Part shown: positions 24,082 through 64,000 of the stretch, one piece after another
How positions within the stretch are numbered: the stretch's first letter is position 1
Layout of the letters: every line of letters starts with the position of its first letter
NCBI GenBank assembly: GCA_039715075.1
Contig: JBDLIC010000003.1
Coordinates: 7-64,006, forward strand
Direction of reading: 5' to 3'
Length of the DNA stretch: 64,000 nucleotides
DNA from: Nitrospirota bacterium
GTDB taxonomy: Bacteria > Nitrospirota > Thermodesulfovibrionia > UBA6902
Notes under the pieces: generated by a model
The model's database searches: none
Told to the model about the DNA's origin: nothing
The model's input: the letters and a program-made list of their open reading frames with translations, nothing else
Position numbers and translations under genes: made by a program

Positions 24082-24108
24082 ATATATCCACATAACTTGG
24101 AGGTGTTT

Positions 24109-25202: not shown

Positions 25203-25231
25203 AGCTGAGTAAGCTTTAAAGAATCAATTCA

Positions 25232-25285: not shown

Positions 25286-25348
25286 TGTTTTTCGAATGTC
25301 CGAGCTTCCGGGTTGAATATAGCATGAGTACCGTGCTATCATGATAAT

Positions 25349-25642
25349 ATGATCCAGTCGTTCCGGAATAAAGGGACAGAAGATATATTTAATGGCATAA
25401 ATTCAAAGGATGTGCGAAAGATATGTCCTCAATCAATATGGAAGGTTGCTACAAGAAAGCTGGATCAACTGGATTCTGTAATAGAGCTTAATGAACTACG
25501 CATTCCCCCAAACAATAAGCTGGAGTCATTAGCAAGAGATAGAAAAGGACAATACAGCATAAGGATAAATGATCAGTATCGTATTTGTTTTATATGGAGT
25601 GATTCTGGTCCGGATAAAGTAGAAATTACTGATTATCATTGA
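25349..25642 (+). CDS. higB: HigB-family (RelE/ParE superfamily) toxin
   Basis: MIQSFRNKGTEDIF...YSIRINDQYRICF...ITDYH matches the plasmid-maintenance killer protein pattern; toxin-first gene order. Confidence 0.85.
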   Translation: MIQSFRNKGTEDIFNGINSKDVRKICPQSIWKVATRKLDQLDSVIELNELRIPPNNKLESLARDRKGQYSIRINDQYRICFIWSDSGPDKVEITDYH

Positions 25643-25664
25643 GATAATTATTAGGAGGTTAACA

Positions 25665-25982
25665 ATGGTGAGGATACCAACACATAGAGAACCGACGCAC
25701 CCGGGAGAAATGCTGCTTGAGGAGTTTCTTAATCCTATGGGCATTACTCAGAGAGAACTGGCTGAAAAGATTCATGTGCCATATCAGCGAGTAAATGAAA
25801 TCATTAATAAAAGGCGAGGCATTACACCGAGTACAGCCTTAAGGCTTGCAAAATTATTCAGAGTTTCTGAAGATTTCTGGATGAACCTTCAGTTGCGCTG
25901 GGATTTATATAAAGCAAGACTAAATGAATCAAAGGAATTGAAGGAGATTAGACCCTTAAAGCTCAAGCAGACAGCGGTTTAA
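25665..25982 (+). CDS. higA: HigA-family XRE-HTH antitoxin
   Basis: HPGEMLLEEFLNPMGITQRELAEKIHVPYQRVNEIINKRRGITPSTALRLAKLF. Confidence 0.85.
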   Translation: MVRIPTHREPTHPGEMLLEEFLNPMGITQRELAEKIHVPYQRVNEIINKRRGITPSTALRLAKLFRVSEDFWMNLQLRWDLYKARLNESKELKEIRPLKLKQTAV

Positions 25983-26033
25983 TAAAATGCCCAAGAAGGC
26001 AGTGCATTGGAACGAGTGATAAAGGGTAATTCG

Positions 26034-26150
26034 TGAATTACCCCTACACTTGAACTTACCCGCTTCCTCACTTTTCTTTTTTTCTTGACACATGCCTGTA
26101 TTTGAAATATCCTTATTTTAAGTAAAGGGGGGATTTCTTAGGCCCATTTT
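26034..26150. repeat. 20-bp palindrome plus island module copy 3
   Basis: gggtaattcgtgaattaccc, then cccgcttcctcacttttctttttttcttgacacatgcct...ggggggatttcttaggcccatttt. Confidence 0.85.
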
Positions 26151-26210
26151 CATTTATTCGTAATTCTGACCCCAAACGTTTAAAACGTTTTTTAAAAAGG
26201 AGGCGATATC

Positions 26211-26399
26211 ATGGAAGATATTCAAAAGCACACTGACTGTGATAATTTTCAAAAGCCTGAATGTCCGCATTATGACAATGGCATAATGAAGGATCTTTAT
26301 CTTATTAAGGAAGATGCCGCAAATTATTCAGGTAACTTACCTGATCGAGTTGACAATGAATTATGTAAAGAATGCTATGAATTCTCTCCTATAACTTGA
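26211..26399 (+). CDS. Small Cys4 (zinc-ribbon-like) hypothetical protein
   Basis: Strong AGGAGG RBS; Cys pairs C10/C18 and C52/C55. Confidence 0.5.
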   Translation: MEDIQKHTDCDNFQKPECPHYDNGIMKDLYLIKEDAANYSGNLPDRVDNELCKECYEFSPIT

Positions 26400-26588
26400 T
26401 GATCTTTTTAACCTGAATACAGAACGGTGAGCAATGTATGGAGTCAAATCTTTATTAGATATTTAGCAAATTCCGACATAACCTACTTGCATGCGGTGCT
26501 CCAATCCCCAAGCCGCCAGCTGATTTGGATTAAAAGGGCTGACCCCTTATCCGTTAATGGTAGAGATTAAATATAAGTGGAGGGTGAT

Positions 26589-26921
26589 ATGCAGCGTTTC
26601 AAAAAATTTATAGATCAAAGTCTTAATTCAGAAAATATAATAAACTCAGATCAATTATCTGCATTCGGGATAACATGTACAACTCTGCCGGACCCGCCGG
26701 AAGAATTTGACGAGTTTGAATTTAGAACCGGTTTTTCAGAGCAAATGGATGTTGTGATCGGGGTGGCAATAGAAATGGGGAAAGTTAAAAGGATCTTGTT
26801 GGGTTTGTCAGAAAAGAGTGACCCTGATAGTTTTATGGCTTTGTCTGAATTACAATTAGAAGAATTTTTAACGCAGAGGGGCGATCAGCTGATCGGGTTT
26901 TTTAAATTCATTACGCAATAA
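26589..26921 (+). CDS. Hypothetical protein
   Basis: GGAGGG RBS before ATG 26589; no motif recognised. Confidence 0.45.
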   Translation: MQRFKKFIDQSLNSENIINSDQLSAFGITCTTLPDPPEEFDEFEFRTGFSEQMDVVIGVAIEMGKVKRILLGLSEKSDPDSFMALSELQLEEFLTQRGDQLIGFFKFITQ

Positions 26922-26925
26922 AAAT

Positions 26926-27156
26926 ATGTCGAATGCGAAAAAGTTTATTTATAGCAATAAATTTATAGGGATTCTTCTCATCTTAACTTCTTTTATGCCT
27001 TTCATTAACGGCTTCAAAGGTGAGAGAATTGCTATCTCGGCTAGATATGGGGGCGCATTCGAAATGGAACCATGGCAAAGTATAATTATTGGATTTTGTT
27101 TTTTACTTGGCGGATTATATTTTGTAATTGATTTGAATAAAAGAAATGAAAAATGA
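26926..27156 (+). CDS. Small two-TM membrane protein
   Basis: Two hydrophobic helices; directly follows the previous ORF. Confidence 0.45.
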   Translation: MSNAKKFIYSNKFIGILLILTSFMPFINGFKGERIAISARYGGAFEMEPWQSIIIGFCFLLGGLYFVIDLNKRNEK

Positions 27157-27620
27157 GTGGCTGCGAAGGATCATATAAATCCGGTGTTAGTGAAGTTGTA
27201 CGACGTTCTGTAAGTGAAATAATAAATGAAAATATAAACATAGAGTGGACTCAAACAGGCTATAGCCGAACGGTGGACTACCCCTAGCTATAGTGCCACT
27301 CTAAGTTAGCGTTTTCCAGTAAATTCATTTTTTAAAAGGTGCACTTCTCGATAATTTATTAGGTTATGGGAGCTGGGCGCTGTTAATAGAAAATTCTTGT
27401 AGAATAGGCGGGTTTTCGTTAAAATGTAACATCTTGATTAATTGGGATTTTACAATTCTTCCCAAATTGGCAAATAGGGGAGTTTTAAACCTAATCTAAT
27501 CAGTGGATTTATTTTTGGGGTGGATGTTTGTTAATTGCATAGAGTTGAACCTACTAATTCTAAAAAAATCCGCAAAAAGCGTTATCATTAAAATAGTTTG
27601 ATAATAAATTAAGGAAATAC

Positions 27621-28640
27621 ATGGCTAATAAAGCAACAAACAAAAAACAGAAGAGCCTGGAAGAGACCCTTTGGGATTCTGCTAACAAGCTGCGTGGAAG
27701 CGTTGAACCATCAGAATACAAGCATGTGGTTCTGAGTCTTATCTTTCTGAAGTTTGCCAGTGAAAAATTTGAGCACCGGCGACAGGAACTGACTGATGAG
27801 GGGAAAGAGAAGTATCTCGATATGGTGGAATTTTACACTATGAAGAACGTTTTCTATCTTCCGGAGGAATCCCGCTGGGGCTATATCAAGAAGCACGCGA
27901 AGCAGGATGATATTGCCATCAAGATTGATACGGCTCTTCATACGGCTGAAAAGACGAACAAAGCTCTGGAAGGTGCATTACCGGACAACTATTTTTCCCG
28001 CTTGAACCTTGATGTCAGTAAACTGGCCGCATTGATAGATACAGATAAGAGTAAAGAAATCGATATTTTTAATGATGACTATCTTGCAAAGATAGAAAAG
28101 ATCAAACTGCCCAATACGAAAATTAAGCTCTTGCAGTATTTGCTGTCTAAAGCTATTGATGAATTTAAGAAGATCAATAAAATCAAAGGAATTGACTTTA
28201 CAAAAAAGTTTAATGCTTTAGTTGAGCAATACAATGACAGGAAAGAGCAGGATGTTTTGGTCAGTAATGTGCTTGAAGATTTCACAGGAGAAATTATTGA
28301 TCTATTTCATGCCATGAAGAAAGAGAAGGAATCTTTTGGTGATATGGGGATCGATCTTGAAGAGAAGGCTTTTTATGACATCCTCAAAGCACTGACTATT
28401 AAGTATGATTTTGAATACCCCGAGGACAAACTACTGAAATTGGCAAAGGGAGTAAAAAAGGTTGTTGACGATAAAGCGAAATATACAGACTGGAGCCATC
28501 GCGATGACATTAAAGCTGAACTAAAGGCGGATCTGATCATCCTTTTGGCAGAGAATGGCTACCCTCCCGTAGACCGGGATGAAGTGTATAAAGAAATCTT
28601 TGAGCAGGCTGAGAATTTTAAGAAGTATCAGGGAAAATAA
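27621..28640 (+). pseudogene. In-frame chimera of HsdM N-terminal domain and HsdR C-terminal domain (type I R-M remnant)
   Basis: N-terminal ~140 aa look like HsdM_N (LEETLWDSANKLRGSVEPSEYKHVVLSLIFLKF); the rest resembles the HsdR C-terminal helical domain (LVEQYNDRKEQ...EEKAFYDIL); no methylase, S or helicase/nuclease sequence. Confidence 0.6.
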
Positions 28641-28718
28641 TGGGTGGTATCATTACCTGTTCTCCTCAATATTTGATGTGTTTCCCATTTTTAGGTAAAA
28701 TTTTCTTAGAGATCCTAT

Positions 28719-28931
28719 ATGAAAAGACAATTACTATATTTAGCGCTTATTTGTGTTGTCCCGGCAATACTGTATTTCCTATCACTGGAGAAGGTCATTC
28801 CAATGCCTGCTGATGATGCTCATGCAAACCTTACGGAAATCGCCCAGTGTTTCGAGTGTCACGGCGAAGGCATGGAATATGCCCGCAAAAAAGAGCATCC
28901 ACCAAAAGACCAGTGCTTTAAGTGTCATTAA
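28719..28931 (+). CDS. Small membrane-anchored diheme c-type cytochrome
   Basis: N-terminal TM helix; two CxxCH motifs (CFECH, CFKCH). Confidence 0.65.
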   Translation: MKRQLLYLALICVVPAILYFLSLEKVIPMPADDAHANLTEIAQCFECHGEGMEYARKKEHPPKDQCFKCH

Positions 28932-28990
28932 AAATGCGGTAGTCAAAAATTGTGTTTACAATATTTGTAAAGAGAACTATTGACTAATTA

Positions 28991-29033
28991 ATTTTCATTA
29001 AATATGGGGCTCTGCCCCATATTTAATGAAAAT
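28991..29033. repeat. Perfect 20-bp-stem palindrome
   Basis: attttcattaaatatggggc-tct-gccccatatttaatgaaaat. Confidence 0.95.
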
Positions 29034-29119
29034 CTATCAATTACTTAAATATATAGACAGCACCTCTAAACAGGTGCTATAATAAAACCAATTAACAATA
29101 CCAGTAAGGAGGTTCGAAT

Positions 29120-29425
29120 ATGGGAACTAAATTTTCCGAAGATATAATCCCGCTAGGTGACCTAAAGGTGAATCCCGGTAAAGTTGTTTCTCATGTGAAT
29201 GAGACGCACAGGCCGGTACTGCTGACCAGCAGAGGACGGGGGGTGGCTGTAGTACAATCACTTAGCGACTATGAGGATGAGACTGAGAAGCGTGTTTTTA
29301 TGCAGGATATAGTAGAGGGATTAATGGACCTTGAAGAAGGCAGGGAACTTTCACTGAAGGATGTAAAGAAGCGTCTGCGTATTGTCCGCATCTGGAGAAG
29401 CGAAAGACATCTGAAAAAGCCATGA
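29120..29425 (+). CDS. Phd/YefM-family antitoxin (orphan)
   Basis: GGAGG RBS; LGDLKVNPGKVVSHVNETHRPVLLTSRGRGVAVVQSLSDYE; no intact toxin gene downstream. Confidence 0.7.
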   Translation: MGTKFSEDIIPLGDLKVNPGKVVSHVNETHRPVLLTSRGRGVAVVQSLSDYEDETEKRVFMQDIVEGLMDLEEGRELSLKDVKKRLRIVRIWRSERHLKKP

Positions 29426-29489
29426 CTCCTGCTTCTGTAAGCTTCCCCCTTAAGTCGATAGTTCTAAATTAGATTTCCCGGGAGATTGT

Positions 29490-29783
29490 CTATTGATCCT
29501 TTTTTGTACGATTTGGAATCACAAAAAGTATTATCAGTCCAATGAAACTTAATAAACCCAATAAAGCAAAAGAATCGTGATAGCCTTTTCCTGTTGCCAT
29601 GTGATAACAACCGAAAAAGAAAATAACAACCCCCACAATATATGTCGCCGTAGAAATGTATTCGTAATTTCCCCCCAGCTGAAAAAGAATATCAAAAAAG
29701 TACCCCATAAAAGCTACAAGAAAACCAATGCCTGCAAGCTGAGTCCCTTGTTTATATTTCTTATTCACAATCTCCACTTTCAA
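29490..29783 (-). CDS. Small membrane protein (3 TM)
   Basis: Hydrophobic helices; AT-rich; downstream of the transglutaminase-like gene. Confidence 0.5.
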   Translation of the reverse strand: MKVEIVNKKYKQGTQLAGIGFLVAFMGYFFDILFQLGGNYEYISTATYIVGVVIFFFGCYHMATGKGYHDSFALLGLLSFIGLIILFVIPNRTKKDQ

Positions 29784-29849
29784 ACGTCAGCTTTCATATT
29801 TAATCTTAATCTCTCCAAACTTGTTTTTATATTCGATGAAGGTGCTGCT

Positions 29850-30224
29850 CTATTCTCTACTTTTTCTTACAGGTATAATACCCTTTTTTAGCAACTTACA
29901 AAGTATGGGAACTTCCAAACCACTTATTAAAAAGGAATCCCCAAAGGTAGCCATATGCCAATAAAATAAATTCTCATTTGTCTTGGTCATTTTTAATAAC
30001 AAAGTATCTAGAACGATGTTTGGGTCATACTGAATAGCTGTAAATCCTTCGTGATAAGCAAGGTAACAATTTATTGCGACACTGGTTAAAACAAAAATCA
30101 TCCCGATAATTGTAATTATAAATGTCCAGAGTATGGATTTTTTGCAAATAGTTGTACGACAATCAAGGATACAAATAGTCCAGATGAAGAGATATCCCCA
30201 AAAAACAATTTGATATTTATTCAT
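29850..30224 (-). CDS. Small membrane protein (about 4 TM)
   Basis: Hydrophobic helices; starts 9 nt after the stop of the 1055-aa gene. Confidence 0.5.
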   Translation of the reverse strand: MNKYQIVFWGYLFIWTICILDCRTTICKKSILWTFIITIIGMIFVLTSVAINCYLAYHEGFTAIQYDPNIVLDTLLLKMTKTNENLFYWHMATFGDSFLISGLEVPILCKLLKKGIIPVRKSRE

Positions 30225-30232
30225 AGTTAGTG

Positions 30233-33200
30233 CTAATTATTACCGTACAATACAGAGTTAACACATTGTCCAAAGTTATGGATACTTAAGCCCATTAAAG
30301 CACCATTAATAATATTACCCAGTATTTTAACAATATTTGATTTCAGAAATTTGCTCATATAGTCAAATGATACTTTGGCAGCAACTTCAGTAACTTTTAT
30401 TCCATAGAAGCAGTTCACAAAATCAGACCCTACTTTTCCCCCATAGAGATACATTATTGATAAAATAACAGTAGCAAAAAAAGCTGCTAACAAAGCTGCT
30501 AAGATGGGTAGCAAAAGTGGAGCAGCAACTGTCGCTCCAGTCAATAATAGTGTTAAGAATAGAAAAAAACCTGCCAGAAGTAACAATAGTGTACCTATTA
30601 TCATCATAGCACCTGCTAATCTCCCACTAATCATATAAGCCCCAGCCCCTGTAAGCGGATCAATGATTATATAGCCCAATCCTGTCCAGCCGTTGTGTGT
30701 GATATCGGTTCTCGATACAGTCACTGTTTTGCCTGCATTCACCGCATTCTGTATATCAGCTATCGTTCCGCTATCTGTTTGTAACTGTGGAAGGATTGTA
30801 TCAATATTGGTTTGATTAATTGTATAAATAGGTATCCCCTGATCATTAGCAATCTTTAAGGCCTTAACTGCACTTATTCCCTCAGCCGGATTCTCAGGCG
30901 TCGAAAACAACTGTTCAGGCACCGAATGCTCCAGAGCCGATCCACTCATACCTGATGAAAGCATAAACTGCTTCGGCTTTTCTTTATCAGCATCCAATGC
31001 TTTAACAAGTGTCATAATCCTGTCCGCATCCATTGCCAGTCCGCCGGGGCTAACCGACAATGGCATATTCATAAACTTGTTTACACTCAGTTCATACGAA
31101 AAGATTGTCTCAGAGGGCAATCTCATCGCTTTGACTCCCATAGTCTGTGCACTTATATAGTCCATCACATCATGCTCTGCAAAATATGATATAGCAGTTG
31201 TGTACAGCAGGTCCCCAAGGATATCATCTTTTGTCATATCTGAGAAATCCTCTGCTTCCAGCTTTGCTTTAGTTGCCTCCAAATTTGCTTTAACCGCCAG
31301 CATCTGCTCTTCCGATATCCTGTATGGATCAATTCCAATACCCAGGTATTCCCCTGCTTGTATATCATTGAATATTATATCGGCACCTGCAGCAGGATCC
31401 ATAAACGTCATCTTGAATTCCTCTGTTGCTCCCAGACCAATTTCTGTCCCTGTTGCTACTACTTCCCCATCGATCATTAACTCAGGTTTAAGATTTATCA
31501 GATAAGCAGCCAATGATGTCGGCAGTTCAGTTGGATCAATGGGTGTCCCGTCTTCATGTGGCTCTGGAAGATAGGAATTGATGACAGCTTCATCATCAGG
31601 CGTTGCAGGTGAATAGCTTAATGTCACCTTCTTCCCAGCCAGCTCCGGCAGACTCTTTGTTATGTTTATCGGAGTACCCATTAAATCATCATGTATATCT
31701 TTTTTAACTTCAAACGTTATCTTATGTCTCAGACTATCCGGAACTTCAGCATGCTCTGCCCCATTTACTATTGTCCTGTACGGAAGGGTCCCAAGTAAAT
31801 AGGGAAATTCCTGAGGGATTATTTCTTTCTTCCCCAGCACGTCCCCGACCGTTGCATCCGGATAGTTCGTGTTTATATAATCTTCGACCTGAGTCTGATA
31901 ATCCGTCATTGTATTATCTATAAATAAAGAATCAACATCAGTTACATAGCCTTCTTCTTCGTTAATGGTAGCAGAGGCCTGTATCTGGTTTATGAATGTC
32001 TGTGCATCAAAGGGCACTGCTGACTGTATATCTACCCCCTGCATGTAATTGTACTGCTTGAAACTTGCATCAAGATGTATCCACGTATCTCCCTGTCCTG
32101 TCTGGTGGGTTGATCCTCTGTACGGGAAATAATCTATCCATGCCTCAACCCAGACATGCTCAATCCTCGCATATTTAACCTCTCCGCCAGCCAGTATGCC
32201 TGATACCGGTATTCCTGCTGACGCAAGCAGGTTTAGTGCCTCCATTTTGTCCGTAAACCCACCAAGCCAGTTCATTACTTTCTCTATCGGTATTTCAACT
32301 GTTCCTTCTACATATCTTGCATGAATACCTGATATACGGAGAAGTGCTATCAAAAGACTGGCTGTATCAATGGCGTTGCACTGTTTTGTCTGAAGACAAT
32401 AGTCAGCTCCCTGTATTGATCCATATGTCGGAACAAAATCAATATTATTACGGACCCATTCGTAGATTTTTAGCGGATCATTTTCGAGCTCTGCTGCTTT
32501 TGCTGTTATTGCATCCGTAAATTGTACTTCTATCGTCTCTTCCAGATCCTCAGATACAGGCGGGGCAGATTTTGCTATGAGAAAAACCGGAAGTTCAAAA
32601 GCAGGGAAGCCAGGATGATCAGAATCCCACCACTCTGTTCCATCAAAACCCTCAAGCTCCCCTGCTTTCTCCCTTCCTTCTGCCCCCATGTCCCCTGCTG
32701 GGTACTCTGACCCTGAAGGCAATATTCCTGCCAATGACCCATGTGACGCAATAAGAATCATCTTTTGTCTTTTGCTTATGACCTCTGCCCTTCGCTCTAT
32801 GCCAAATTCTTCTTTCTTTATACGAGGCTCCTTAAAAACCGGCTCTGCTGTCCTGTGTGGAAGTTTATTCGGGTCTACCGGCTTATATTTTTTCGGAGGG
32901 TTAAGTTTCTCAATATGCTTCTTCGCATTTTCAAGTGCAAAAATTTCACTTTCTACGGTCCGTGCCTGCCCTATGGCATTAAGTTTACTTTTTAGCTCTT
33001 CAAGATTTTCTTCATATTGATTTACAAAGTCATAATGCCTCTTTAATATCTTCTGAGGCAATCCTGCGTTCTTTAATCTCTGTTCCGTCTCTTTAAATTT
33101 CCCTCTTATTTCTTTATCAAATACTGCTATCTCTGCCATTTTCTCCTGCAATTTATCATTTTTGGCACACGCATTTGAAACGGGATCATCCAGAATCTGC

Positions 33201-43548: not shown

Positions 43549-46500
43549 CTATTTAACGATTTTTACCAGAATGTCTCCGAAACCCGGCATTCCGGTCATG
43601 GGGGTAAGATTGTCAGGATCAAAGAACTCGTTAATATTGGTGGTGTATTCACTTACATTATTAATAAAACCGAGCCCCGATGCATTTTGTCCTCCCGGGC
43701 CAAAGGCGGTTTTTATGACACCCGGCATTATTTCTTCAGTAAGGTAAACCTTTCCCTTCATGCTTTTCCCGGAGGGGTTTTCAAGAGTAATGACATCTCC
43801 TTTTTTTATGCCCAGTTTCCTGCCGTCACTTTTGCTGATTGCCAGCACAGGGATGGATACACTTCCAGCCTTGAAACGGGGTTTCATATTCCCGGGAATC
43901 CCGTATTTTTCCCGGAACCCGCTATTTTCCGGTAATGCATATTCGAACCCGTTATTCATCGGCTTCATGCATTCCGTTTCTGTTTCAGCAAGATAAGGAC
44001 AGACTGCTGTCATTGTCATGGCATGGTGTACCCTGCCTGATATCAGCTGGAAAGGGTATTCATCTGTTATGTTTTTGAATTTCGGGTTTTTCGGGTTCCA
44101 CAAGCAGTCGCTCCAGTAGAAAGTCACAGGCAGGCCGGTCCCGAACTTTTTGTTAATATTTTCAATATAGCTGAATCTGAATTCAAACTTTTTTGAACCG
44201 GTTGCGGGATATAGCCCGGATGGATCGTTGTTTGATTTTTTATACCGGTAATAACCTGCGGGCCATACTGCTACTCCATTATTTTTCCTGAGCCAGTCGA
44301 CTGTAAGCAGTGTGCCCTTTTTAATGACCTTCTTTCCCCACACGGCCGCGGGATTATCCGGTGTACCTACTATTAAGCATCCTTCAGGAAGGTCGGGATA
44401 GGGTAGAGGCCGGCCCAAATTGAAAAATCCCGGCGCCTCGCTTAATATCTCATTTATGAAATCTTCTTCGTCTTTATACCTTCCGGCAAAATCTTCAATC
44501 CTGATATCATGATCTCCATTTTTTATAAGGGCGTCCGAGAGCGTTATCATAAATTCATAAGGGGTCTTTGATTCATGGAGAGGCTTGATGACCTGGTCCC
44601 TTACAGCTATTTCCGGACTCATTGTGTAGACATCGCTCACGCCCATTCTCTCAAGGAAACCGGCATCGGGCAGGATAATGTCAGCATATTTGCCGGAGAC
44701 TGTGATGTGGGTGTCTGTGAACACCATCAATTCAAGAAGGTATTCACCATTTTCATCCCTGGCCGTCAGTGCGTCAACCCAGTCCGGGGTGCTGCCGGCT
44801 GTTATAACAGGGTTGCCTGCCCTGGTTATAAAAGCTTTGGCAGGATAGCTTAGGCCTTTAAAGGGGCCGTGTTTCAGTTTGGTCCCTTCCCTGATCTTTT
44901 TGGGAAGGTCTGCCAGCACCCCTTTCCATGCTGCGGGATATTCACCATACATGTCCTTGTTAAGCTCTGACAGTTTTCCGGAAACTTCATTGCCGTCAAC
45001 ATTTCTGCTGACAGTGTTTTCGAGGAAATGTTTTCCAGTGGTCCTGTTCCCCTTCTTTGCTTTTTGAGAATCTATGAAGACCAGGCCGCCCGGAACATCA
45101 ACGTTTCCTGTGATCAGGCAGAGTGCTGTCATGAGTATTGACGTGACATCACCATTCGTATGGTGCGCAGTGCCATGCATCCCTATTTCAATGGCAGCCG
45201 GTTTTGTAATGCCGAAGAGGTGGGACACCATTTTTATCTTTTCCGCTTGTATGCCTGTTTTTTCTTCCGCCCATTCCGGAGTGAAAAAGTGCATTTCGTT
45301 GGCAGGGTCAATATTTTTTGAATGGTCGAGAAATGCTGTCTTAAATTCTTCCCAGCCGACAGTATACTTTTTAATGAAATTATGGTTTAAATATTTCCGT
45401 TCAGGATCTGAAGAAGAGTCCTCACTGATAATACAGTAAAGCATTGCCGCAAGCAGTGAGGCATCTGCTCCGGGTATGATCGGGAGCCACAGGTCCGCAT
45501 GGGCCGCTGAATTGGTATAAGCAGGGTCGACCACTATATACTTGCAGCCGTTCTCTTCCCTGGCAGCAGGGATTCCGCGGGACATATAATTGAAACGGGT
45601 AGCAACGAGGGGGTTTGTCCCTATGTTGAGAAGCAGTTTTATGTCATGACTTTCTTTGAGATGCAGTTCACCTTCTTCATTTCTTATAAGAAACGGTCTC
45701 TGTATGTCAGGAAGCGGCCTCTCGTCACCTGTCATTATTCCCTGTCCCCACTTACGGTTGGGGTCGCATATGCTTCCGTGGTTATAGGTGTTTGGAGTGC
45801 CGAACGCATGGAACAGCCTGTAGTATGCTTCCCTGTCAGTAACATCGCCGCAGTCCATGAATACAGACTCAGCTCCGTATTTCTTTTTTATTTCTATCAG
45901 CTTTTTTGCAATGTAATCCGCTGCTTCATCCCAGGTGATTTCTTCCCACTTATCTTCCCCCCTGCTGCCGGACCTTTTTAAAGGAGTCTTTATCCTGTGG
46001 GGAGAGTATGTGAGCTGCAGGCCTGATGCGCCCTTTGCGCAGAAGGCCCCGTTATTAATTAATGAATGTGGGTTGCCGTAGATTTTTTTTGCCATGCCGT
46101 TTTCAACTACAACCGATATGCCGCATTCGGACGGACACATGGCATCTGACGTATAGACTGTTTTTGATTCTTCCGGCCTGACTGAAGATGGAGCAGACTT
46201 AATGCGTCTGGTGGAAGGGCCTTTGGTTACTTCATGGTTTTTTAATGATGTGTGATCAATATCTTTTTTTGATATATAAAAAACAGACGGACTTGTTTCC
46301 AGTTCAGGATTGAGGACTTTCAGCTGTTGTTTATTCATTTCAGTACTGATGCTGCTTTTTGGATCATTAATATCACCAAACAGGAGCGCCTTTCCCATGC
46401 AGCTCTGCACGCAGACAGGGCTTTCCCCGTTTTGCACCCTGCTGCAGCAAAAGTCGCACTTTTCAGCTTGTCCAGTAGCATGATTAATTTCAATCGCATC

Positions 46501-46818
46501 ATAAGGACATTTATCCTGGCACATCCCGCAGCCGGAGCAATTTTCATTGTTAATAATAACAATGCCGTCCTGGTTTTTATAAAGGGCGTTTTCTTCACAT
46601 GCATTAATGCAGGGGGCATTGTCGCAGTGATTGCAGAGACGGGGAAGAAATGTTTTTTTTGTTTCGGGAAACGGGCCTGAAATATGTGTGTGAACTTTGC
46701 ATCTAAAGAGCCCGAAAGGAATTTCATATTCAGTTTTACATGTGACCTGGCAGGCATAACACCCGATGCACCTGTCAAGGTTGATCAGCATGCCGTACCT
46801 TTTGTTACGTTTTGCCAT
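43549..46818 (-). CDS. Fused four-cluster ferredoxin (beta-like) and molybdopterin oxidoreductase (alpha-like), Psr/Phs/DMSO-reductase superfamily
   Basis: N-terminal ~190 aa with CIGCYACQVTC, CNHCDNAPC, CSGCGMCQDKCP, CDFC; then MopB-like domain (CPSECGISV...FCAKG); no twin-arginine signal. Confidence 0.8.
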   Translation of the reverse strand: MAKRNKRYGMLINLDRCIGCYACQVTCKTEYEIPFGLFRCKVHTHISGPFPETKKTFLPRLCNHCDNAPCINACEENALYKNQDGIVIINNENCSGCGMCQDKCPYDAIEINHATGQAEKCDFCCSRVQNGESPVCVQSCMGKALLFGDINDPKSSISTEMNKQQLKVLNPELETSPSVFYISKKDIDHTSLKNHEVTKGPSTRRIKSAPSSVRPEESKTVYTSDAMCPSECGISVVVENGMAKKIYGNPHSLINNGAFCAKGASGLQLTYSPHRIKTPLKRSGSRGEDKWEEITWDEAADYIAKKLIEIKKKYGAESVFMDCGDVTDREAYYRLFHAFGTPNTYNHGSICDPNRKWGQGIMTGDERPLPDIQRPFLIRNEEGELHLKESHDIKLLLNIGTNPLVATRFNYMSRGIPAAREENGCKYIVVDPAYTNSAAHADLWLPIIPGADASLLAAMLYCIISEDSSSDPERKYLNHNFIKKYTVGWEEFKTAFLDHSKNIDPANEMHFFTPEWAEEKTGIQAEKIKMVSHLFGITKPAAIEIGMHGTAHHTNGDVTSILMTALCLITGNVDVPGGLVFIDSQKAKKGNRTTGKHFLENTVSRNVDGNEVSGKLSELNKDMYGEYPAAWKGVLADLPKKIREGTKLKHGPFKGLSYPAKAFITRAGNPVITAGSTPDWVDALTARDENGEYLLELMVFTDTHITVSGKYADIILPDAGFLERMGVSDVYTMSPEIAVRDQVIKPLHESKTPYEFMITLSDALIKNGDHDIRIEDFAGRYKDEEDFINEILSEAPGFFNLGRPLPYPDLPEGCLIVGTPDNPAAVWGKKVIKKGTLLTVDWLRKNNGVAVWPAGYYRYKKSNNDPSGLYPATGSKKFEFRFSYIENINKKFGTGLPVTFYWSDCLWNPKNPKFKNITDEYPFQLISGRVHHAMTMTAVCPYLAETETECMKPMNNGFEYALPENSGFREKYGIPGNMKPRFKAGSVSIPVLAISKSDGRKLGIKKGDVITLENPSGKSMKGKVYLTEEIMPGVIKTAFGPGGQNASGLGFINNVSEYTTNINEFFDPDNLTPMTGMPGFGDILVKIVK

Positions 46819-57262: not shown

Positions 57263-57958
57263 ATGTTATCCGGTAAAAAAATAGCTGTTATAATACCTGT
57301 GCTGAATGAGGAGAAGACACTGCCGCTTGTTATGAAAGATATATCAAGGGACCTGGTTGATGAAGTGGTAGTTATAGACAACGGGAGTAAAGACAGGACC
57401 CCCTCATTAGCGAGGGAAGAAGGGGCGACACTTCTGTTTGAGGCCAGGAGAGGCTATGGCTATCCCTGCCTGAAGGGAATTGATTATCTTAAAACAAAAA
57501 AGCCGGATATAGTCGCTTTTGTTGACGGGAACTATAGTGATCATCCTGATGAGATAAAAAAAATAGTGGGACCTATAGTTAAGGAGGATTATGACCTTGT
57601 CTGCGGATCCAGGGTAATGGGAAGGGCTGAAGAAGGTGCGCTCCGTTTTCCTGTCCTTTTCGGCAATCTCCTGGCAACTGTTCTGATAAGACTGTGCTAT
57701 GGCTTTAAATACACCGATGTCGGGCCTTTCAGGGCCATCAAGTTTGAGAGGCTGCTTGAACTGGATATGAATGACAATCTTGGATGGACCATCGAAATGC
57801 AGGTCAAGGCAGTTAAAAAGAAATTTAAAATAACAGAAGTTCCGGTAAGCTACCGCGAGGGCACGGGTAAATCGAAATTCACAGGAAACATAACAGGAAT
57901 CCTTAAGATAGGCTACAGGATAATAAGAGCAATATTAAAAAATCTCTTTTATTCCTGA
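57263..57958 (+). CDS. Family-2 glycosyltransferase (polyprenyl-phosphate sugar synthase-like)
   Basis: IAVIIPVLNEE, VIDNGSKD, DGNYSD motifs. Confidence 0.8.
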   Translation: MLSGKKIAVIIPVLNEEKTLPLVMKDISRDLVDEVVVIDNGSKDRTPSLAREEGATLLFEARRGYGYPCLKGIDYLKTKKPDIVAFVDGNYSDHPDEIKKIVGPIVKEDYDLVCGSRVMGRAEEGALRFPVLFGNLLATVLIRLCYGFKYTDVGPFRAIKFERLLELDMNDNLGWTIEMQVKAVKKKFKITEVPVSYREGTGKSKFTGNITGILKIGYRIIRAILKNLFYS

Positions 57959-58074: not shown

Positions 58075-58093
58075 TTAAACTGAGAGGTCCATT

Positions 58094-58933
58094 ATGGCCA
58101 TATCTAATTACTTCAAACCTGTTAAATCAATGTCTGCGGACAAAGTCAGAGAATATTTGCGGGATGAAAATCCTGATGAGTACAACCTTATTGATGTGCG
58201 CCAGCCTTTTGAGTATGAACAGGATCACATACCGGGCGCGCATCTGATGCCCCTGAAAGACCTTTCTGCACAAGTTAAAAATCTTGACAGGGAAAAACCG
58301 ACCATTGCCTATTGAGGCATCGGGGTACGCAGCCGTGCTGCTGCATCCATACTCTCTGATGCGGGATTCAGTAATGTTATAAATATGTCCGGAGGCATTA
58401 ATGCCTGGAAAGGGGCGAGGGCTGAAGGGGTCCCGGAGTCCGGCATGGCGTATTTTTCAGGCAGTGAAAGTCCGGAAGAGCTTGCTGCCCTTGCATGGCT
58501 GCTTGAAGATGGGTCAAGAAAATTCTATTCAGAAGTCTCAACGCTGACAAATGATGGAGATGCAGTTTCATTATTTAAAGACCTTGTTACTGCTGAGGAA
58601 CATCACAAGGAATCCATTTTAAAAGTATACCAGGAATTGACCGGCAGTAAGGCTGTGCCGGAAGACATGGGTGAGCTTATATCTTCAGAGACACCGGGAG
58701 ACATGATGGAGGGCGGCATAAGTGTAACGGAGGCACTGGAATGGGCACAGGAAAAGAGTTTAAAGGAAATTCTCGAGTTTACGATCTCTCTTGAAGCCAA
58801 TGCTTATGACCTCTATATAAAGATGGGGAGAAAATTTGTGGACAGTAATGCCGGGAAGATATTTGATCTGCTTTCAGAAGAAGAGCGGATGCATCTTGAG
58901 CGTATGGCCGGTTTACTGGAAAAAGAAATCTGA
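58094..58933 (+). CDS. Rhodanese / ferritin-like (rubrerythrin-like helical) fusion with in-frame TGA (candidate Sec) at 58313..58315
   Basis: Track ORFs 58094..58315 and 58385..58933 share one frame; the read-through gives KPTIAY-U-GIGVRSRAAASIL, so the TGA occupies the rhodanese CX4R active-site Cys position; C-terminal half has AEEHH and EEERMHLE motifs. Confidence 0.65.
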
Positions 58934-59031: not shown

Positions 59032-59535
59032 TCAATAGGCAATCTTTATCCTGCCTATTTCATCTTTAGTAATATCAGACCATGCTTTCATTGTCCAGTA
59101 ACCTACCCACTTTTTGAATATACCTAGATTCTTCTGCCGTTCTTCTTCTGTTTTCCCGAGGCGTTCGTACATCTTGCCGGGTTTTCCGTCCTCTGTATTC
59201 CTGCCATCGTCAAGGGCCTTTGCCAGCGATCCGGCATCCGGCCATATGACAAAAGAAACCAGATGCGAGAAGCTGTCCATTTTAGGGCCGATTTTCTTTG
59301 CTGTATATTTCTCTACATCTTTTACGAATCCCATATGCTCAGGTGATTTTTTGCCGTGGCACTTTGCGCATTTTTTATCGAATATTGGCTTGATGCTGTT
59401 TGTATAAGTGACGCTGCTCTTTGCGGAGGCATGTTTTTCCTTGCCATGTGCAAATGAGTCTTTCAGAACAAACGGGGAAAGTAAAAGAGTTAGTGTGAAC
59501 ACCGGTACAGTAATTAAGTGGAAAAATGTTTTCAT
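59032..59535 (-). CDS. Secreted monoheme c-type cytochrome-like protein
   Basis: Signal peptide; IKPIFDKKCAKCHG (CxxCH); GGAGG RBS before ATG 59535. Confidence 0.65.
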   Translation of the reverse strand: MKTFFHLITVPVFTLTLLLSPFVLKDSFAHGKEKHASAKSSVTYTNSIKPIFDKKCAKCHGKKSPEHMGFVKDVEKYTAKKIGPKMDSFSHLVSFVIWPDAGSLAKALDDGRNTEDGKPGKMYERLGKTEEERQKNLGIFKKWVGYWTMKAWSDITKDEIGRIKIAY

Positions 59536-59549
59536 TTTATTCTCCCTCC

Positions 59550-60149
59550 TCATGAACTCATTAAGGCTTGAATAATTGATTTCATGTCATCAGTATTCCA
59601 TTCTCCATAACCGAGAGAAACTCCAATGATGTCTCCGTTTTTATCTATCAGGAACTTCATGGGGTGAGACCTTACACCGTAGCTGGCGCTCACCTGTTCA
59701 TCCTGATCCAGTAAAAAAGTGAAAGAAAGGTTTCTTTCCTCAATAAATTTTAGGACTGTTTCCTTTTCCTCTCCTACATTTATCGCCAGTATTGAAAACG
59801 GTTTACCTTTAAAATGCCGGCCCAGTTTTTCAAGAGAAGGCAACTCCTTCTTGCACCAGCCTCACCATGTTGCCCAGAAACTCAGCATAATCACATTGCC
59901 GCGCTGCTGCCTGAGATTGATTTGTTCTTCAGCGATAGACATCAAAGTGAAATCCGGGGGCAGTAGCGGTTTCTCGGGTTTCTGGATATTCATTGCCGTC
60001 ATTAGCGAGGAGAGATCAGTATCTGACAAGTTCTGATCAGCCCCGGCGGCTTCAGGAAGAGTCCCTGAAAATTCTCTGAACCCTCCGTATATACTGCCCA
60101 GAAGAATGAGGATTATTGTTATGGTGAATACCTTATTTGATATATGCAT
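59550..60149 (-). CDS. TlpA/ResA-like thioredoxin-fold protein with in-frame TGA (candidate Sec, UGWC motif) at 59862..59864
   Basis: Track ORFs 59862..60149 and 59550..59843 share one frame; the read-through gives VIMLSFWATW-U-GWCKKELPSLEKL, so the TGA occupies the first Cys of WCxxC; N-terminal membrane anchor. Confidence 0.7.
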
Positions 60150-60168
60150 TTAAACTATTATTTCTCCA

Positions 60169-62961
60169 CTAATGCACATGTCTCCCGCTCATGGGCAGAC
60201 CGAGCATATAAATACTGGAAAGTACAACAACCAGTGCGTACAGAGACATAACCAGGGTCATCTTATACATATGATAAAGAGGCTTTTGATAGCGCCTGAG
60301 CAGGCGGTATAACACATATAATGTGAAACCGAATCCCGTTGCAAGGATACTCATCTGGATAAAGTAAATGGTCTCAAGTCCCAGCAGAGGGGAAGGGTTC
60401 CAGTTTGCAGAGAGTGACGCTCCGATACCAATGTTCTGCAGGAACCGGATAGTAGCAGGCAGCGCTATAGGGCTTTCAATTAAAAGGTGCTGAATGTTGT
60501 GTGCAAAGTGCAGTCCTACTCCCATGGGTATAAAGAGAAAAGCGAAGTCCTTTACAAGGTCCTGCGTTTTGTAGTCCCTCTTTCCAAGCCATAATTTAAG
60601 CAGATAACATATTAAATAAAAGATTGCGACAGGTATCAGAAGCACGGCCGTAAATACGATTGTATAAACCAGTGAAGGTGCTGTTATACCGGTAACTGAA
60701 CTGAAACCTCCTTTCAGCGGTTCCCATGATGAGGTCATGGCAAGAGTCTCTACAATGACCACTCCCAATAATAACAATGCTGCGATTGCCTCTGCCTTTG
60801 ATTTGCGCAGGCTGGCATATATGTCTTTGCCAAAGGACCTGAGGCGCAGACTCAGATTTTGCGAAGGGCAGGCCGGTTGGCATTTCATACAGAAATTACA
60901 GTACACGTTGTTGTCCATATCTTCCGGCGATTCGAGCATAGGACAGGCCTCTGTACATGTTTTCTTTTTGTGTGCGTCACAGCGGCCTTTATTGCATGAA
61001 CGCAGCTCAAAGGGTGATACCATGGAATAGATCCCGATAACTGCCCCGATAGGGCAGATATGACGGCAGAAGGAGCGCCGTTCATAAATAATACTAAATG
61101 CGACAGCTGCAGCCAGAATAATTAATATCACTACTGATGTCACAAACGGCTTGCTGCCGAATGCAAGGATCGTAAATGCCCAGGTCAGTACAAGGAAACC
61201 TATGGTCTGCAGTCCCATGTTTTGGAGCCAGCCGGGAAGTTTTTTGTTCAAAGAAACAAATTTCTGGGCAAAGTCGGCAATGGCCGCAAAAGGGCACATC
61301 ATGCACCAGAAACGGCCTGCAAGTATAAAAGTGAATATGACCAGACTCCACCAGATAGTCCAGGTAAAGACTGTCGCAATATTACGCTGACCATCCTGGA
61401 CATCAAAGAAGCCGAGATAAGTGACAGCCAGAAATATAAGCAGCGTGGGGATGACAAAAATATATCTGAAATATTTTGAGGTAACAGTGCGTTTAATCCA
61501 GCCTATTTTTAGAAGATCGAAGCCTTCTTTTTCACGATACTCAGGTTTGTTTTGTGACGAAGATCTGAAACGGCTGAGTATAAATCCCATCCCGATCATA
61601 CCTGAAAAAACTAACAGCCAGCTGACATAACCGGTCATCGAAGCCCGGCCGGCAAAGTCTTTCAGAGATATGCCTGCATAGTGGAAATGGGTCTCCTTTT
61701 TGGAAGGGTCAAATCCTGAATCAAAGCCGGTAAAAGCGGACATTATGGGATTCCCGAAAATGTCCCTGTCTGCACCCTCTCCTATACGGAATGTAGTCTC
61801 ATTGCTCGCCCATACATCCGCATGCTCCTGATTGCTTTTGGAATGATCGTGATTGGCATGTGCCTTATCAAGCGTGAAGATCCCGTAATGTTTCATGGTA
61901 TTTCCGACGACAAGGAGCATATTATAGGCTTTCCCGATTTCAAAGGATACGTCCTGCTTGTCAAAGGTCTTCAAGGGAAAAGCGAATTCATATGTATAGA
62001 AATCATTCTGATGATTGCCTTTTGCGGTGACGTGGTCGGTATCGTCCTTTTTAAGAAAAAAGGTCTTGTTCGGGCGCTGCGTGAAATATCTGTCGCTCAC
62101 TTCACCGTCTGATTTCATGACTTTAGCATCCTTGTATGCACCGAGCATCCCGAGATTAGCGTCATTTTTGAACATCAGGCCTACCCAGTAAGGAGTGTCC
62201 GTCTTTACTGCGAAATATATGTTTTCATTATCGATCTGCGTCCAGACCTCAACATAGTAATATGGTTCTTTGTGTCCTTCAGAAGGTTTATGAGGTTCAT
62301 AGCTCCCCAGATAAAAATACCTGTGCCCTGTGTCCTTCCATTCCCCTGCAGAAATCTTTCCGTCTATATTTATTGTATTTCCTGTATTCCGGGCAATGAA
62401 ATTCGTATTGTTTGAGGCATATACTACCGGACTGTCCGGCGGAGTCCCGTCAAAATCCGAAGGATTATATTTATAAACCATCTTCCCCGGTGCAGCGCCG
62501 CATCCGTTGGCAATATGAATATTGCCTGTCATGGCGTCAACATCAAGCACAAGCCGTTCTACCTTGAAGTTAACCGGACCAAGGTGGTAGCCGCCATCAT
62601 ATCCTTTTAAAGGTTCCGACTCAAACTGATATACGACCTTCCTGTGCACTTTCTCAAGCTTCCTGAATGCCAGGGGGAATGGGGGGGGCTGCAGATTTTC
62701 GGTGAGGAACCGCTCTGCTATCTCCCTGGCATGATCAGGAGTAATATTTATTAATGATTCATCATAGAGGAGGTTTCCCTCTTCATCATAATTATTCCCA
62801 CGATTGTTTTGCTCTTCTGTCTCAGTATTTTCAGAAAGGATTACATCTTTGCCGTTGCAGGCATATAACAAGTCTGCCTGAAACATGAATAATGCCATGA
62901 TTGTCAGAAGAACTGCAGCAATATAGATTTTGTGCTTTTTAGGCATGTCTTTTTTTAACAT
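60169..62961 (-). CDS. Membrane polyferredoxin of the NapH/NosR type with periplasmic PepSY-like and DOMON/CBM9-like domains
   Basis: GRFWCMMCPF and RSFCRHICPIG membrane Cys motifs; CNFCMKCQPACP ferredoxin motif; IDGKISAGEWKDTG module. Confidence 0.65.
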   Translation of the reverse strand: MLKKDMPKKHKIYIAAVLLTIMALFMFQADLLYACNGKDVILSENTETEEQNNRGNNYDEEGNLLYDESLINITPDHAREIAERFLTENLQPPPFPLAFRKLEKVHRKVVYQFESEPLKGYDGGYHLGPVNFKVERLVLDVDAMTGNIHIANGCGAAPGKMVYKYNPSDFDGTPPDSPVVYASNNTNFIARNTGNTINIDGKISAGEWKDTGHRYFYLGSYEPHKPSEGHKEPYYYVEVWTQIDNENIYFAVKTDTPYWVGLMFKNDANLGMLGAYKDAKVMKSDGEVSDRYFTQRPNKTFFLKKDDTDHVTAKGNHQNDFYTYEFAFPLKTFDKQDVSFEIGKAYNMLLVVGNTMKHYGIFTLDKAHANHDHSKSNQEHADVWASNETTFRIGEGADRDIFGNPIMSAFTGFDSGFDPSKKETHFHYAGISLKDFAGRASMTGYVSWLLVFSGMIGMGFILSRFRSSSQNKPEYREKEGFDLLKIGWIKRTVTSKYFRYIFVIPTLLIFLAVTYLGFFDVQDGQRNIATVFTWTIWWSLVIFTFILAGRFWCMMCPFAAIADFAQKFVSLNKKLPGWLQNMGLQTIGFLVLTWAFTILAFGSKPFVTSVVILIILAAAVAFSIIYERRSFCRHICPIGAVIGIYSMVSPFELRSCNKGRCDAHKKKTCTEACPMLESPEDMDNNVYCNFCMKCQPACPSQNLSLRLRSFGKDIYASLRKSKAEAIAALLLLGVVIVETLAMTSSWEPLKGGFSSVTGITAPSLVYTIVFTAVLLIPVAIFYLICYLLKLWLGKRDYKTQDLVKDFAFLFIPMGVGLHFAHNIQHLLIESPIALPATIRFLQNIGIGASLSANWNPSPLLGLETIYFIQMSILATGFGFTLYVLYRLLRRYQKPLYHMYKMTLVMSLYALVVVLSSIYMLGLPMSGRHVH

Positions 62962-63094
62962 CTAAATATGAACAAAGTGTGAAGAATAGAATTAATAATT
63001 GATCTTCACATTTTATTCATTTTCTCTTCATATTCCTTTCGTATTTTCAGTATATTCTCTAATTAAATCTAATATGGAAAAGGAGGTGGTAAAC

Positions 63095-63334
63095 ATGATG
63101 CATTGGGGCAATTTCAGTGGAATGGGATTTGGATTCGGATGGATATTTATGGTGCTTTTCTGGGCATTTGTAATACTGGGAGTCGCTTATCTGCTCAAGC
63201 AGTTGCTGAGCAGCGGCAGTTCCGGGGAAAGCAGAGAGACTGCACTCGATATTCTAAAGAAAAAGTATGCAGCGGGTGAGATTACAAAGGATGAGTACGG
63301 TGAGAAGAAAACAGCAATTTCAGAAAAAACTTAA
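63095..63334 (+). CDS. SHOCT-domain small membrane protein
   Basis: AAGGAGG RBS; one TM helix; LDILKKKYAAGEITKDEYGEKK. Confidence 0.7.
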   Translation: MMHWGNFSGMGFGFGWIFMVLFWAFVILGVAYLLKQLLSSGSSGESRETALDILKKKYAAGEITKDEYGEKKTAISEKT

Positions 63335-63450: not shown

Positions 63451-64000
63451 ATGAAGCGCTTACTATTAATAACAGTCTTGATTTTAGGTTTAACAGCGTC
63501 TTACAGCTTTGCCCAGATGGGAGAGGGGCATATGGGAGACCAGGGTCATATGTCGGGACAGGGGATGATGGGACAGGGCTATGCGGGCAGCCAGAGTCAG
63601 CAGCCGCCGCAGGGAATGCCCTATGGCCAGATGCCTTATGGCGGCGGTTATCCATGCCAGCAGATGATGGGACCGGGCATGATGGGATATGGCGGATACG
63701 GTATGATGGGCCAGGGCCACATGGGCGGATATGGAATGATGGGACCGGGTCACATGCGCGGCATGATGGGACCGGGCATGATGGGACATGGCGGATACGG
63801 GATGATGGGTCAAGGTCATATGGGTGGATATGGAATGATGGGGCCGGGTCATATGGGCGGATACGGAATGATGGGCCAGGGCCATATGGGCGGCATGATG
63901 GGTTACGGCAAAGGATACGGGAAACAGGGATACGATGATGAATCCTATAAAAAATATCAGGAAGACTATCAGAAGTTTATGGAAGAAACGTCGGATCTGA
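63451..64000 (+). CDS. Secreted Gly/Met/His-rich repeat protein, Spy/CpxP/ZraP-like tail (partial, runs off window)
   Basis: AAGGAGG RBS, signal peptide MKRLLLITVLILGLTASYSFA, repeats GYGMMGQGHMGGYGMMGPGHM, then YKKYQEDYQKFMEETSDL; absent from the track because no stop lies in the window. Confidence 0.7.
   Translation, partial: MKRLLLITVLILGLTASYSFAQMGEGHMGDQGHMSGQGMMGQGYAGSQSQQPPQGMPYGQMPYGGGYPCQQMMGPGMMGYGGYGMMGQGHMGGYGMMGPGHMRGMMGPGMMGHGGYGMMGQGHMGGYGMMGPGHMGGYGMMGQGHMGGMMGYGKGYGKQGYDDESYKKYQEDYQKFMEETSDL

Follow-up and report, generated by a model that had tools for sequence, protein, structure and literature searches.

At 58094..58933 on the forward strand of the stretch of Nitrospirota DNA analysed here (64 kb in all, hereafter the window) there is a single reading frame of 279 codons and a terminal TGA stop, whose sole interruption is another TGA, at 58313-58315 (codon 74). 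An earlier note on this DNA had placed two open reading frames (ORFs), 58094..58315 and 58385..58933, in one frame separated by that TGA, and had proposed that the TGA takes the place of the catalytic cysteine (Cys) of a rhodanese joined to a ferritin-like domain. The common frame and the read-through peptide (...EKPTIAY-U-GIGVRSRAAASILSDAGFSNVINMSGGINAW...) are exactly as it described, and we consider it very probable that 58094..58933 is one gene, encoding a genuine selenoprotein with selenocysteine (Sec) at residue 74, the only position in the whole protein that is occupied by either Cys or Sec. The features of the locus, including a candidate selenocysteine insertion sequence (SECIS), are as follows.

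58094..58933, + strand: complete gene for a probable selenoprotein, a rhodanese / erythrin-like di-iron fusion (one frame; homologue alignment)
58082..58087, + strand: Shine-Dalgarno-like GAGAGG (read from the sequence)
58136..58414, + strand: rhodanese domain, residues 15-107, with the loop U74-G-I-G77-V-R79-S80 (Pfam PF00581; Foldseek)
58313..58315, + strand: codon 74, the putative Sec-UGA (Cys/TGA column in homologues)
58322..58348, + strand: candidate bacterial SECIS element (hairpin fold; comparison of Sec with Cys forms)
58493..58915, + strand: rubrerythrin/erythrin-like four-helix-bundle domain, residues 134-274 (Pfam PF02915; putative ligands; Foldseek)

The predicted N-terminus, MAISNYFKPV, lines up with the starts of full-length homologues, and the GAGAGG motif lies 6 nucleotides (nt) before the ATG at 58094; no comparable motif could be read ahead of the internal ATG at 58385. 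A scan for sigma-70 promoters and intrinsic terminators around the gene gave nothing credible.

Both halves of the predicted protein are recognised by Pfam. The rhodanese match (E=1.9e-21, 76.8 bits against a cut-off of 22.2) puts the TGA on the catalytic Cys, as the earlier note had supposed, and Y73, together with G77, R79 and S80 of the active-site loop, is invariant in homologues; the loop has the six-residue C-X4-R/T form of rhodaneses, with U for C. The rubrerythrin match is weaker (E=1.9e-7, 32 bits against a cut-off of 22.8) and is accompanied by six conserved positions that look like di-iron ligands (E138, E168, H171, E234, E264 and H267), five of them invariant and H171 at least 90% conserved; they include the paired motifs E168-x-x-H171 (AEEHH) and E264-x-x-H267 (EERMH) that had led the earlier note to a ferritin/rubrerythrin-like fold. 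E206, D239 and Y145 are invariant too. AlphaFold was applied to P0002, the full-length Cys homologue closest to the protein (56% identical); in the model (mean predicted local distance difference test score 89, predicted template modelling score 0.88) a rhodanese alpha/beta fold is followed by a four-helix bundle (helices 127-150, 155-183, 223-247 and 251-278). No solved structure found by Foldseek spans both halves. The N-terminal half matched 3TP9, Npsr (3NTA/3NT6), CoADR-RHD (3ICR) and PDO-rhodanese (5VE3/5VE4), with root-mean-square deviations of 1.2-2.2 Å, and the C-terminal half matched 2FZF, 1VJX and a Dps-like protein; a profile search likewise gave 1VJX (the TM1526 ferritin-like di-iron carboxylate protein, E=4.6e-12), with 2FZF and symerythrin also matching. 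Thus the nearest solved relatives of the C-terminal domain are ferritin-like di-iron proteins, and iron binding by this domain is predicted from its ligand set.

The fusion family and its codon 74

A database search returned 381 relatives, and when one genome per species was scanned with a profile, 593 genomes contained a relative. Most of the database relatives are of about 279 amino acids, have both domains and carry Cys at column 74 (...TI(T/V/A)Y-C-xxGxRSRAAA...), where it is at least 90% conserved in an alignment of 96 sequences (A4). Alignment with Cys homologues had been put forward in the earlier note as a check on the Sec assignment, and in the full-length homologues the Cys falls exactly at the TGA column. 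A second group of relatives comprises shorter proteins (162-204 amino acids) that start 2-4, about 24 or about 44 residues past column 74; when the DNA of three of these truncated clusters was inspected, each had an upstream 73-residue rhodanese ORF in the same frame, ending in TGA. The tryptophan (Trp) recorded at the active site of one database member from a JGI pipeline also corresponds to TGA in the DNA.

Codon 74 was compared in the 80 best loci of the genome scan together with loci fetched earlier, giving 82 non-redundant loci. It is TGA in 47 loci (44 non-redundant) and TGC or TGT in 39 (38 non-redundant), and its recurrence as TGA in 44 non-redundant genes from other genomes is far beyond chance. 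The TGA forms span Nitrospirota, Thermodesulfobacteriota, Acidobacteriota and other groups, the hosts of the family being mostly anaerobes, and a neighbour-joining tree requires about nine switches between Sec and Cys. One genome (L055, CAVRBA010000005.1) has two paralogues about 2.1 kb apart (4089 and 6220), one of them a Sec form with TGA and hairpin and the other a Cys form.

On a larger scale, when 1.84 billion representative proteins were searched with a profile, 673 clusters (represented at 50% identity) matched at E<=1e-30, most of them two-domain proteins of 266-300 amino acids, so the fusion partner, which the earlier note had regarded as unusual, turns out to belong to an architecture that is the rule in this family. 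Truncated calls among the profile matches begin at profile positions 78-98. The record from which the window comes annotates residues 118-279 only (P0121), other gene callers too give only fragments (73 amino acids plus 162-204), and no source, whether database relative or source record, names any member of the family a selenoprotein. All of the public calls retrieved for TGA forms are wrong, consisting either of a 73-residue 'rhodanese' and a 160-204-residue 'rubrerythrin' or of a protein with an active-site Trp. As the family is large and roughly one in two of the 82 loci examined has TGA, the selenoproteomes of Nitrospirota and Thermodesulfobacteriota have been undercounted, and a dedicated family model would correct many genomes together.

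The downstream hairpin and the decoding of the TGA

A hairpin (GCAGC..GCUGC) that the earlier note had seen 13 nt past the UGA lies where it was described, at 58329-58344, the core stem being formed by 58329-58333 and 58340-58344 around the loop 58334-58339 (CGUGCU). The loop, in which a G is followed by a U, begins 18 nt after the UGA. In an alternative register, with a CGU loop and an extended, bulged lower stem, the structure takes in 58322-58348, and this extended fold has an energy of -12.0 kcal/mol, compared with -6.4 kcal/mol for the bare hairpin of 5 base pairs (bp). The published model of bacterial SECIS elements (bSECIS; PMC13188914, Fig. 2) specifies a loop of 3-9 nt, a stem of 4-16 bp, a G in loop positions 1-2, a spacing of 16-37 nt from the UGA and a minimum free energy of -7.5 kcal/mol or lower; the element in the window, with its 5-bp stem, 18-nt spacing and -12.0 kcal/mol as the extended fold, lies within these limits. 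So do all 44 Sec forms (median -10.2 kcal/mol), compared with 29 of the 38 Cys forms, in which the structures are weak (median -4.3 kcal/mol; Mann-Whitney p=2e-11).

Since the RSRAAA peptide is shared by Sec and Cys forms, conservation of nucleotides alone would be no proof of an RNA element, and the comparison was made at synonymous sites. Arg+5 is CGC in all 44 Sec forms but in only 16 of 38 Cys forms, Ser+6 is AGC in 43/44 compared with 25/38, Ala+9 is GCU in 43/44 compared with 2/38, and Ala+10 is GCG in 28/44 compared with 8/38, while at Gly+3 and Leu+13 the third base is scrambled in Sec and Cys forms alike. The fixed bases are those of the pairs G26-C41, C27-G40, A28-U39, G29-C38 and C30-G37, each of which is formed in 98-100% of the 44 Sec forms; C25-G42 and C31-G36 often pair too, and the loop is G-(G/U)-(G/U)-C or CG(U/G)GCN. 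The full 5-bp stem is present in 43 of 44 Sec forms and in one of the 38 Cys forms, where pairing in the 7-pair structure falls to 55.6% of cells and A28-U39 survives in 2/38. This contrast is not a clade effect: with about nine switches in the tree, Cys forms that branch within groups of Sec forms (L010, L014, L018) no longer have the stem, and isolated Sec forms in a Cys-rich clade (L078, L055 and, with one mismatch, L081) carry it. SECIS prediction, another of the checks proposed in the earlier note, thus gives a hairpin that agrees with the published model and accompanies the UGA throughout the family.

A few loci depart from this pattern. In L021 (CP070737.1) the codon, at 6220, is TGT (Cys) and the full hairpin is kept, which suggests a recent conversion from Sec to Cys; in L081 the codon, also at 6220, is TGA and the stem has one A-C mismatch (GCC for GCU). 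Both are possible evolutionary intermediates. In L167 (P0015; ENA ERZ27228609 k141_8843431) the codon, at 520-522, is a true TGG and the hairpin is intact (CGCAGCCGUGCAGCUGC); either UGA mutated to UGG very recently and the rhodanese was thereby inactivated, or the base was miscalled. With its repeated switches between Sec and Cys within one coding context, and with L021, L081 and L167 as intermediates, the family offers a natural experiment in SECIS evolution.

How might this genome decode such a codon? We infer the presence of Sec machinery from the lineage and from a second TGA-containing gene. The GatB encoded in the window is 69% identical to those of the nearest genomes, which belong to Thermodesulfovibrionia (a class of Nitrospirota); one genome nearest by this measure is the metagenome-assembled genome that supplied the Sec form L019. 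Nitrospirae carry selB and selC, with selC embedded in selB (2026 review, PMC13188914). TGA is the stop of seven of the 35 well-supported genes of the window, and occurs in frame only in the rhodanese fusion and in a TlpA/ResA-like gene (59550-60149, minus strand), where it stands (59862-59864) at the first Cys of FWATW-C-GWC. The product of that gene has a thioredoxin fold (AhpC-TSA/Redoxin) with the motif FWATW-U-GWC, for which Cys homologues have FWATWCGWC (the genome scan for it, biased to Cys forms by its back-translated pattern, showed only FWATWCGWC in the Cys homologues), and a hairpin, AAGAAGG-AGUUG-CCUUCU, lies about 12 nt past the UGA. It is a probable second selenoprotein, and corresponds to the known UxxC class of thiol:disulfide oxidoreductase selenoproteins.

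Several observations weigh against this interpretation of the gene, or at least fail to help it. Neither selA, selB, selC nor selD was found within the window, nor any tRNA, Rfam match or SelA, SelB or SelD domain, an absence that is uninformative because only 64 kb is covered. Among the 44 Sec forms compensatory covariation is essentially nil (one double change), the stem being near-invariant, so that support comes instead from the contrast between Sec and Cys forms. Single-sequence folds are no better than shuffles (z from -0.33 to +1.2) and carry no information, because the hairpin is too short and lies in coding sequence rich in G+C; the perfect hairpin of the window is itself short, and its 5 bp give no more than -6.4 kcal/mol alone. 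The window has no match to a SECIS family of Rfam at gathering or permissive thresholds, as is to be expected given that bacterial SECIS elements are gene-specific. Finally, a flavoprotein gene that often accompanies the family (see below) is absent from the window, where a family 2 (GT2) glycosyltransferase gene lies upstream instead.

Three other explanations of the interrupted frame have to be considered. The gene might be split or decaying, with the TGA as a true stop, the first 73 residues as a useless stub and the rubrerythrin-like part translated from 58385 or 58445: the NCBI, JGI, ENA and Logan gene callers all annotate it so, and a GGAG lies about 9 nt before the ATG at 58445. We nevertheless regard this as very improbable, given that 44 diverged genes (40-63% identity) share a stop at exactly the catalytic codon and stay in frame beyond it, that the 23 codons from the TGA to the first internal Met encode the conserved rhodanese core GxGxRSRAAAxxL...GF, that the internal starts chosen by the callers are inconsistent (+2, +4, M98, M118), and that the hairpin is fixed only alongside TGA. 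It is hardly credible that a TGC or TGT (or TGG) was missequenced or misassembled as TGA: metagenome data do contain single-base variants of codon 74, as the TGG of L167 with its intact hairpin illustrates, but the Logan assembly of run SRR27843388, an independent one, agrees at 100% of 968 bp, TGA included, relatives of 88-91% identity are truncated alike, and the window has just those synonymous codons (CGC, AGC and GCU) that go with TGA throughout the family. The UGA might instead be read through without Sec, whether by reassignment to Trp or glycine or by near-cognate insertion of Trp or Cys; the JGI pipeline did render one member's TGA as Trp, and the 64-kb window affords no direct view of the Sec machinery. 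This too is most unlikely, because TGA ends seven of the 35 genes and the only two in-frame TGAs align with catalytic Cys residues, because a SECIS-type hairpin at the canonical distance would serve nothing in a simple reassignment, and because the lineage is reported to have selB and selC (PMC13188914). The explanation that we prefer as a whole, a Sec-recoded fusion gene with its SECIS element and the mechanism outlined below, therefore seems likely to be right. The product is almost certainly a 279-residue cytoplasmic selenoprotein with Sec at codon 74: the hairpin after the UGA would recruit SelB with Sec-tRNA(Sec), and codon 74 would then actually be read as Sec.

Related proteins and a possible function

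Sec-containing rhodaneses, which the earlier note mentioned as having been reported, are indeed established: five rhodanese-like forms have been catalogued (Zhang et al. 2026, PMC13188914), namely an ExtH-type form with UxxS (form 1, WP_010941598.1), a UxxG form (form 2, MBM9537886.1), a CxU form (form 3, NF041203), a COG2897-type UxxG form (form 4) and TsoB (form 5, NF045694). Form 1 is possibly the 49-kDa Geobacter protein ExtH. Like the catalogued proteins, the one encoded in the window has Sec predicted at the catalytic Cys of a PF00581 loop, identified by a Sec/Cys pair and a bSECIS prediction, and its motif, U-x-x-G (U-G-I-G), is the UxxG of forms 2 and 4, unlike the CxU of NF041203 and the UxxxxU of TsoB. 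It scores far below the cut-offs of the NCBIfam models for these last two (rhodanese_LYCAU, NF041203, 32.2 bits against a cut-off of 115; TsoB, NF045694, 28.6 against 805). None of the catalogued forms is described as having a rubrerythrin/ferritin-like domain, the comparison being with their descriptions; form 2, which is of the COG0607 type and shares the motif, was compared by motif only and may be the same family. With that proviso, the fusion appears from its sequences to be a widespread selenoprotein family absent from the searched text of the catalogue. NCBIfam has no model for a rhodanese/di-iron fusion, and no paper in the searched literature combines selenoprotein or selenocysteine with rhodanese and a rubrerythrin/ferritin-like domain. 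What is new here is a fusion variant of the established Sec-rhodaneses, widespread and systematically mis-annotated; no new principle is involved.

The closest named counterparts are Cys orthologues in Syntrophotalea carbinolica (WP_011342031.1, named 'rhodanese homology domain and ferritin-like domain protein') and Geomonas sp. RF6 (WP_230995683.1), which have the same two domains in about 280 amino acids, 41-46% full-length identity and the same invariant residues, but TGC or TGT in place of the Sec codon and none of the SECIS hairpin codons. No experimental characterisation of these orthologues was found in the searched literature. BpPRF (5VE3), Npsr (3NTA) and CoADR-RHD (3ICR) resemble the fusion in joining a catalytic rhodanese to a redox or iron-dependent module, although the catalytic residue here would be Sec, unlike that of these persulfide-processing fusions. 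Moreover, the iron module of BpPRF is a mononuclear one of the metallo-beta-lactamase fold and that of the window protein is a predicted di-iron four-helix bundle. The bundle, with its E...ExxH...E...ExxH pattern, is shared with rubrerythrin, symerythrin, TM1526 (1VJX), the Pyrococcus furiosus protein 2FZF and the N-terminal domain of MbfA. Canonical rubrerythrin has in addition a rubredoxin Fe(Cys)4 domain; the window protein lacks this and has an N-terminal rhodanese instead, so it is better called erythrin-like than a canonical rubrerythrin. Relative to rubrerythrins it also has the extra invariant residues E206 (in an MEGG loop), D239 and Y145, and a conserved PExGxxxF linker.

The sole broadly recurrent neighbour in the 82 loci is a gene of the Pyr_redox_2 type encoding about 377 amino acids, which lies upstream on the same strand in 31 of them (18 Sec and 13 Cys loci) and in 21 of the 82 ends 11-30 nt before the start of the fusion gene or slightly overlaps it. 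The best family for this flavoprotein is TIGR03169 ('Nterm_to_SelD'), matched over its full length (E=1.4e-76; 258 bits, where the cut-off is 310), with weaker matches to HcaD, NorW and NirB-type reductases. In about a third of the relatives it thus parallels the Pyr_redox_2 flavoprotein of Npsr and CoADR-RHD, which however is fused to the rhodanese and has a redox-active Cys, whereas here it is a separate gene (31/82) whose product lacks one. Cys is conserved in it at one place only, the GGGDC motif that binds FAD (flavin adenine dinucleotide), which gives it the look of an FAD-only reductase that might feed a metal centre.

What might such a protein do? Sec74 would replace the catalytic Cys of the rhodanese-type sulfurtransferase domain and, as the sole chalcogen nucleophile, in a loop of the sulfurtransferase type, would act as a carrier, holding a single sulfane sulfur or selenium atom in a covalent Se-S(e)- adduct rather than engaging in thiol-disulfide exchange. 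The fused di-iron centre would be the redox partner of the bound chalcogen, either acting on it or using it as reductant. Where the gene for the TIGR03169-type FAD protein is present, electrons could pass from NAD(P)H through that protein and the Fe-Fe centre to the Sec-bound persulfide or perselenide, with the release of HS- or HSe- as the outcome, or else onwards to H2O2 or O2. Substrate and electron path are read here from the domains and the neighbouring gene, and a persulfide/perselenide redox function, to which structural and genomic analogy leads us, is proposed tentatively, at less than an even chance.

We favour this function over a role in peroxide or oxygen defence of the rubrerythrin type, in which the di-iron centre would reduce H2O2, Sec74 would be a peroxidatic or relay residue replacing the missing rubredoxin domain, and the protein would carry neither sulfur nor selenium. 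The rubrerythrin match with its full set of ligands, the mostly anaerobic hosts, the resemblance of the partner flavoprotein to NorW/HcaD-type reductases that feed metal centres, and the redox or antioxidant roles of most selenoproteins (as the abstract of a review has it) would all suit such an enzyme. Its rhodanese loop, however, is of the sulfurtransferase type and has no second Cys, the nearest structural neighbours of the rhodanese half are persulfide-processing fusions, and the best match of the flavoprotein is the SelD-associated TIGR03169, so that a peroxidase seems to us possible but rather unlikely. More specifically, the fusion and the TIGR03169 flavoprotein could together form an NAD(P)H-driven perselenide/persulfide reductase. 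Such a system would be a dedicated means of holding reduced selenium (or sulfur) safely and releasing it, and hence a candidate for the long-sought delivery of selenium before selenophosphate synthetase. This idea, a speculative one that we would not expect to hold, comes from the selenium binding of rhodanese and from the association of the flavoprotein family with SelD: rhodanese binds selenium and is discussed as a selenium-delivery protein, physiological proof being described as lacking (in a passage of PMC8538045 that cites Ogasawara 2001), and the route of reduced selenium to SelD is said there to be still unresolved (PMC8538045). The combination of a Sec rhodanese with a di-iron centre has no characterised precedent, its frequent partner belongs to a flavoprotein family otherwise fused to SelD, and the family accordingly offers either a testable candidate for selenium delivery or a new persulfide-redox or peroxide-defence enzyme of anaerobes.

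Neighbouring genes and other features of the window

Upstream of the fusion gene, the GT2 glycosyltransferase gene (57263-57958, forward strand) is syntenic in the closest relative, GCA_964347155.1 (L004, 3994-4695). The best NCBIfam match of the rhodanese half is to NF045521, 'rhoda_near_glyco' (60.6 bits against a cut-off of 145), which hints at a recurring association of rhodaneses with glycosyltransferases. Downstream is a convergent cluster on the minus strand (59032-62961) comprising genes for a PccH-type cytochrome c (59032-59553; PF22297, E=4.6e-45), the probable TlpA-like selenoprotein, whose gene shares 4 nt at its end with the beginning of the PccH gene, and a 930-residue membrane protein with Fer4_5/NapH-like domains. 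This apparent operon looks like a cluster for periplasmic electron transfer or cytochrome maturation. In the wider set of loci, genes for a histidine kinase, an ATP-binding cassette (ABC) ATPase, MutS2 and a fatty-acid hydroxylase are clade-specific neighbours; two further neighbour clusters, at offsets +29 and -848, were rejected as artefacts of antisense ORFs.

Elsewhere in the window, a gene for a 1089-residue molybdopterin oxidoreductase with N-terminal 4Fe-4S domains (43549-46818, minus strand) is without an in-frame TGA, and is thus a Cys or other form and not a Sec-containing one of the formate-dehydrogenase type. Long ORFs are few in the region 22958-30233. The one piece annotated there (27621-28640, 339 amino acids) combines HsdM_N with a HindI-like C-terminal domain of the type I restriction kind, and so points to a restriction-modification locus that has been degraded or rearranged. 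Finally, downstream of a gene for a small SHOCT-domain membrane protein (62999-63334), and running towards the end of the window, is a tandem repeat (63664-63893, forward strand; period 33/99 nt, about six copies). The peptide that it encodes (...GGYGMMGQGHM...) is rich in Met, His and Gly and resembles the methionine-rich motifs that bind metal (copper).

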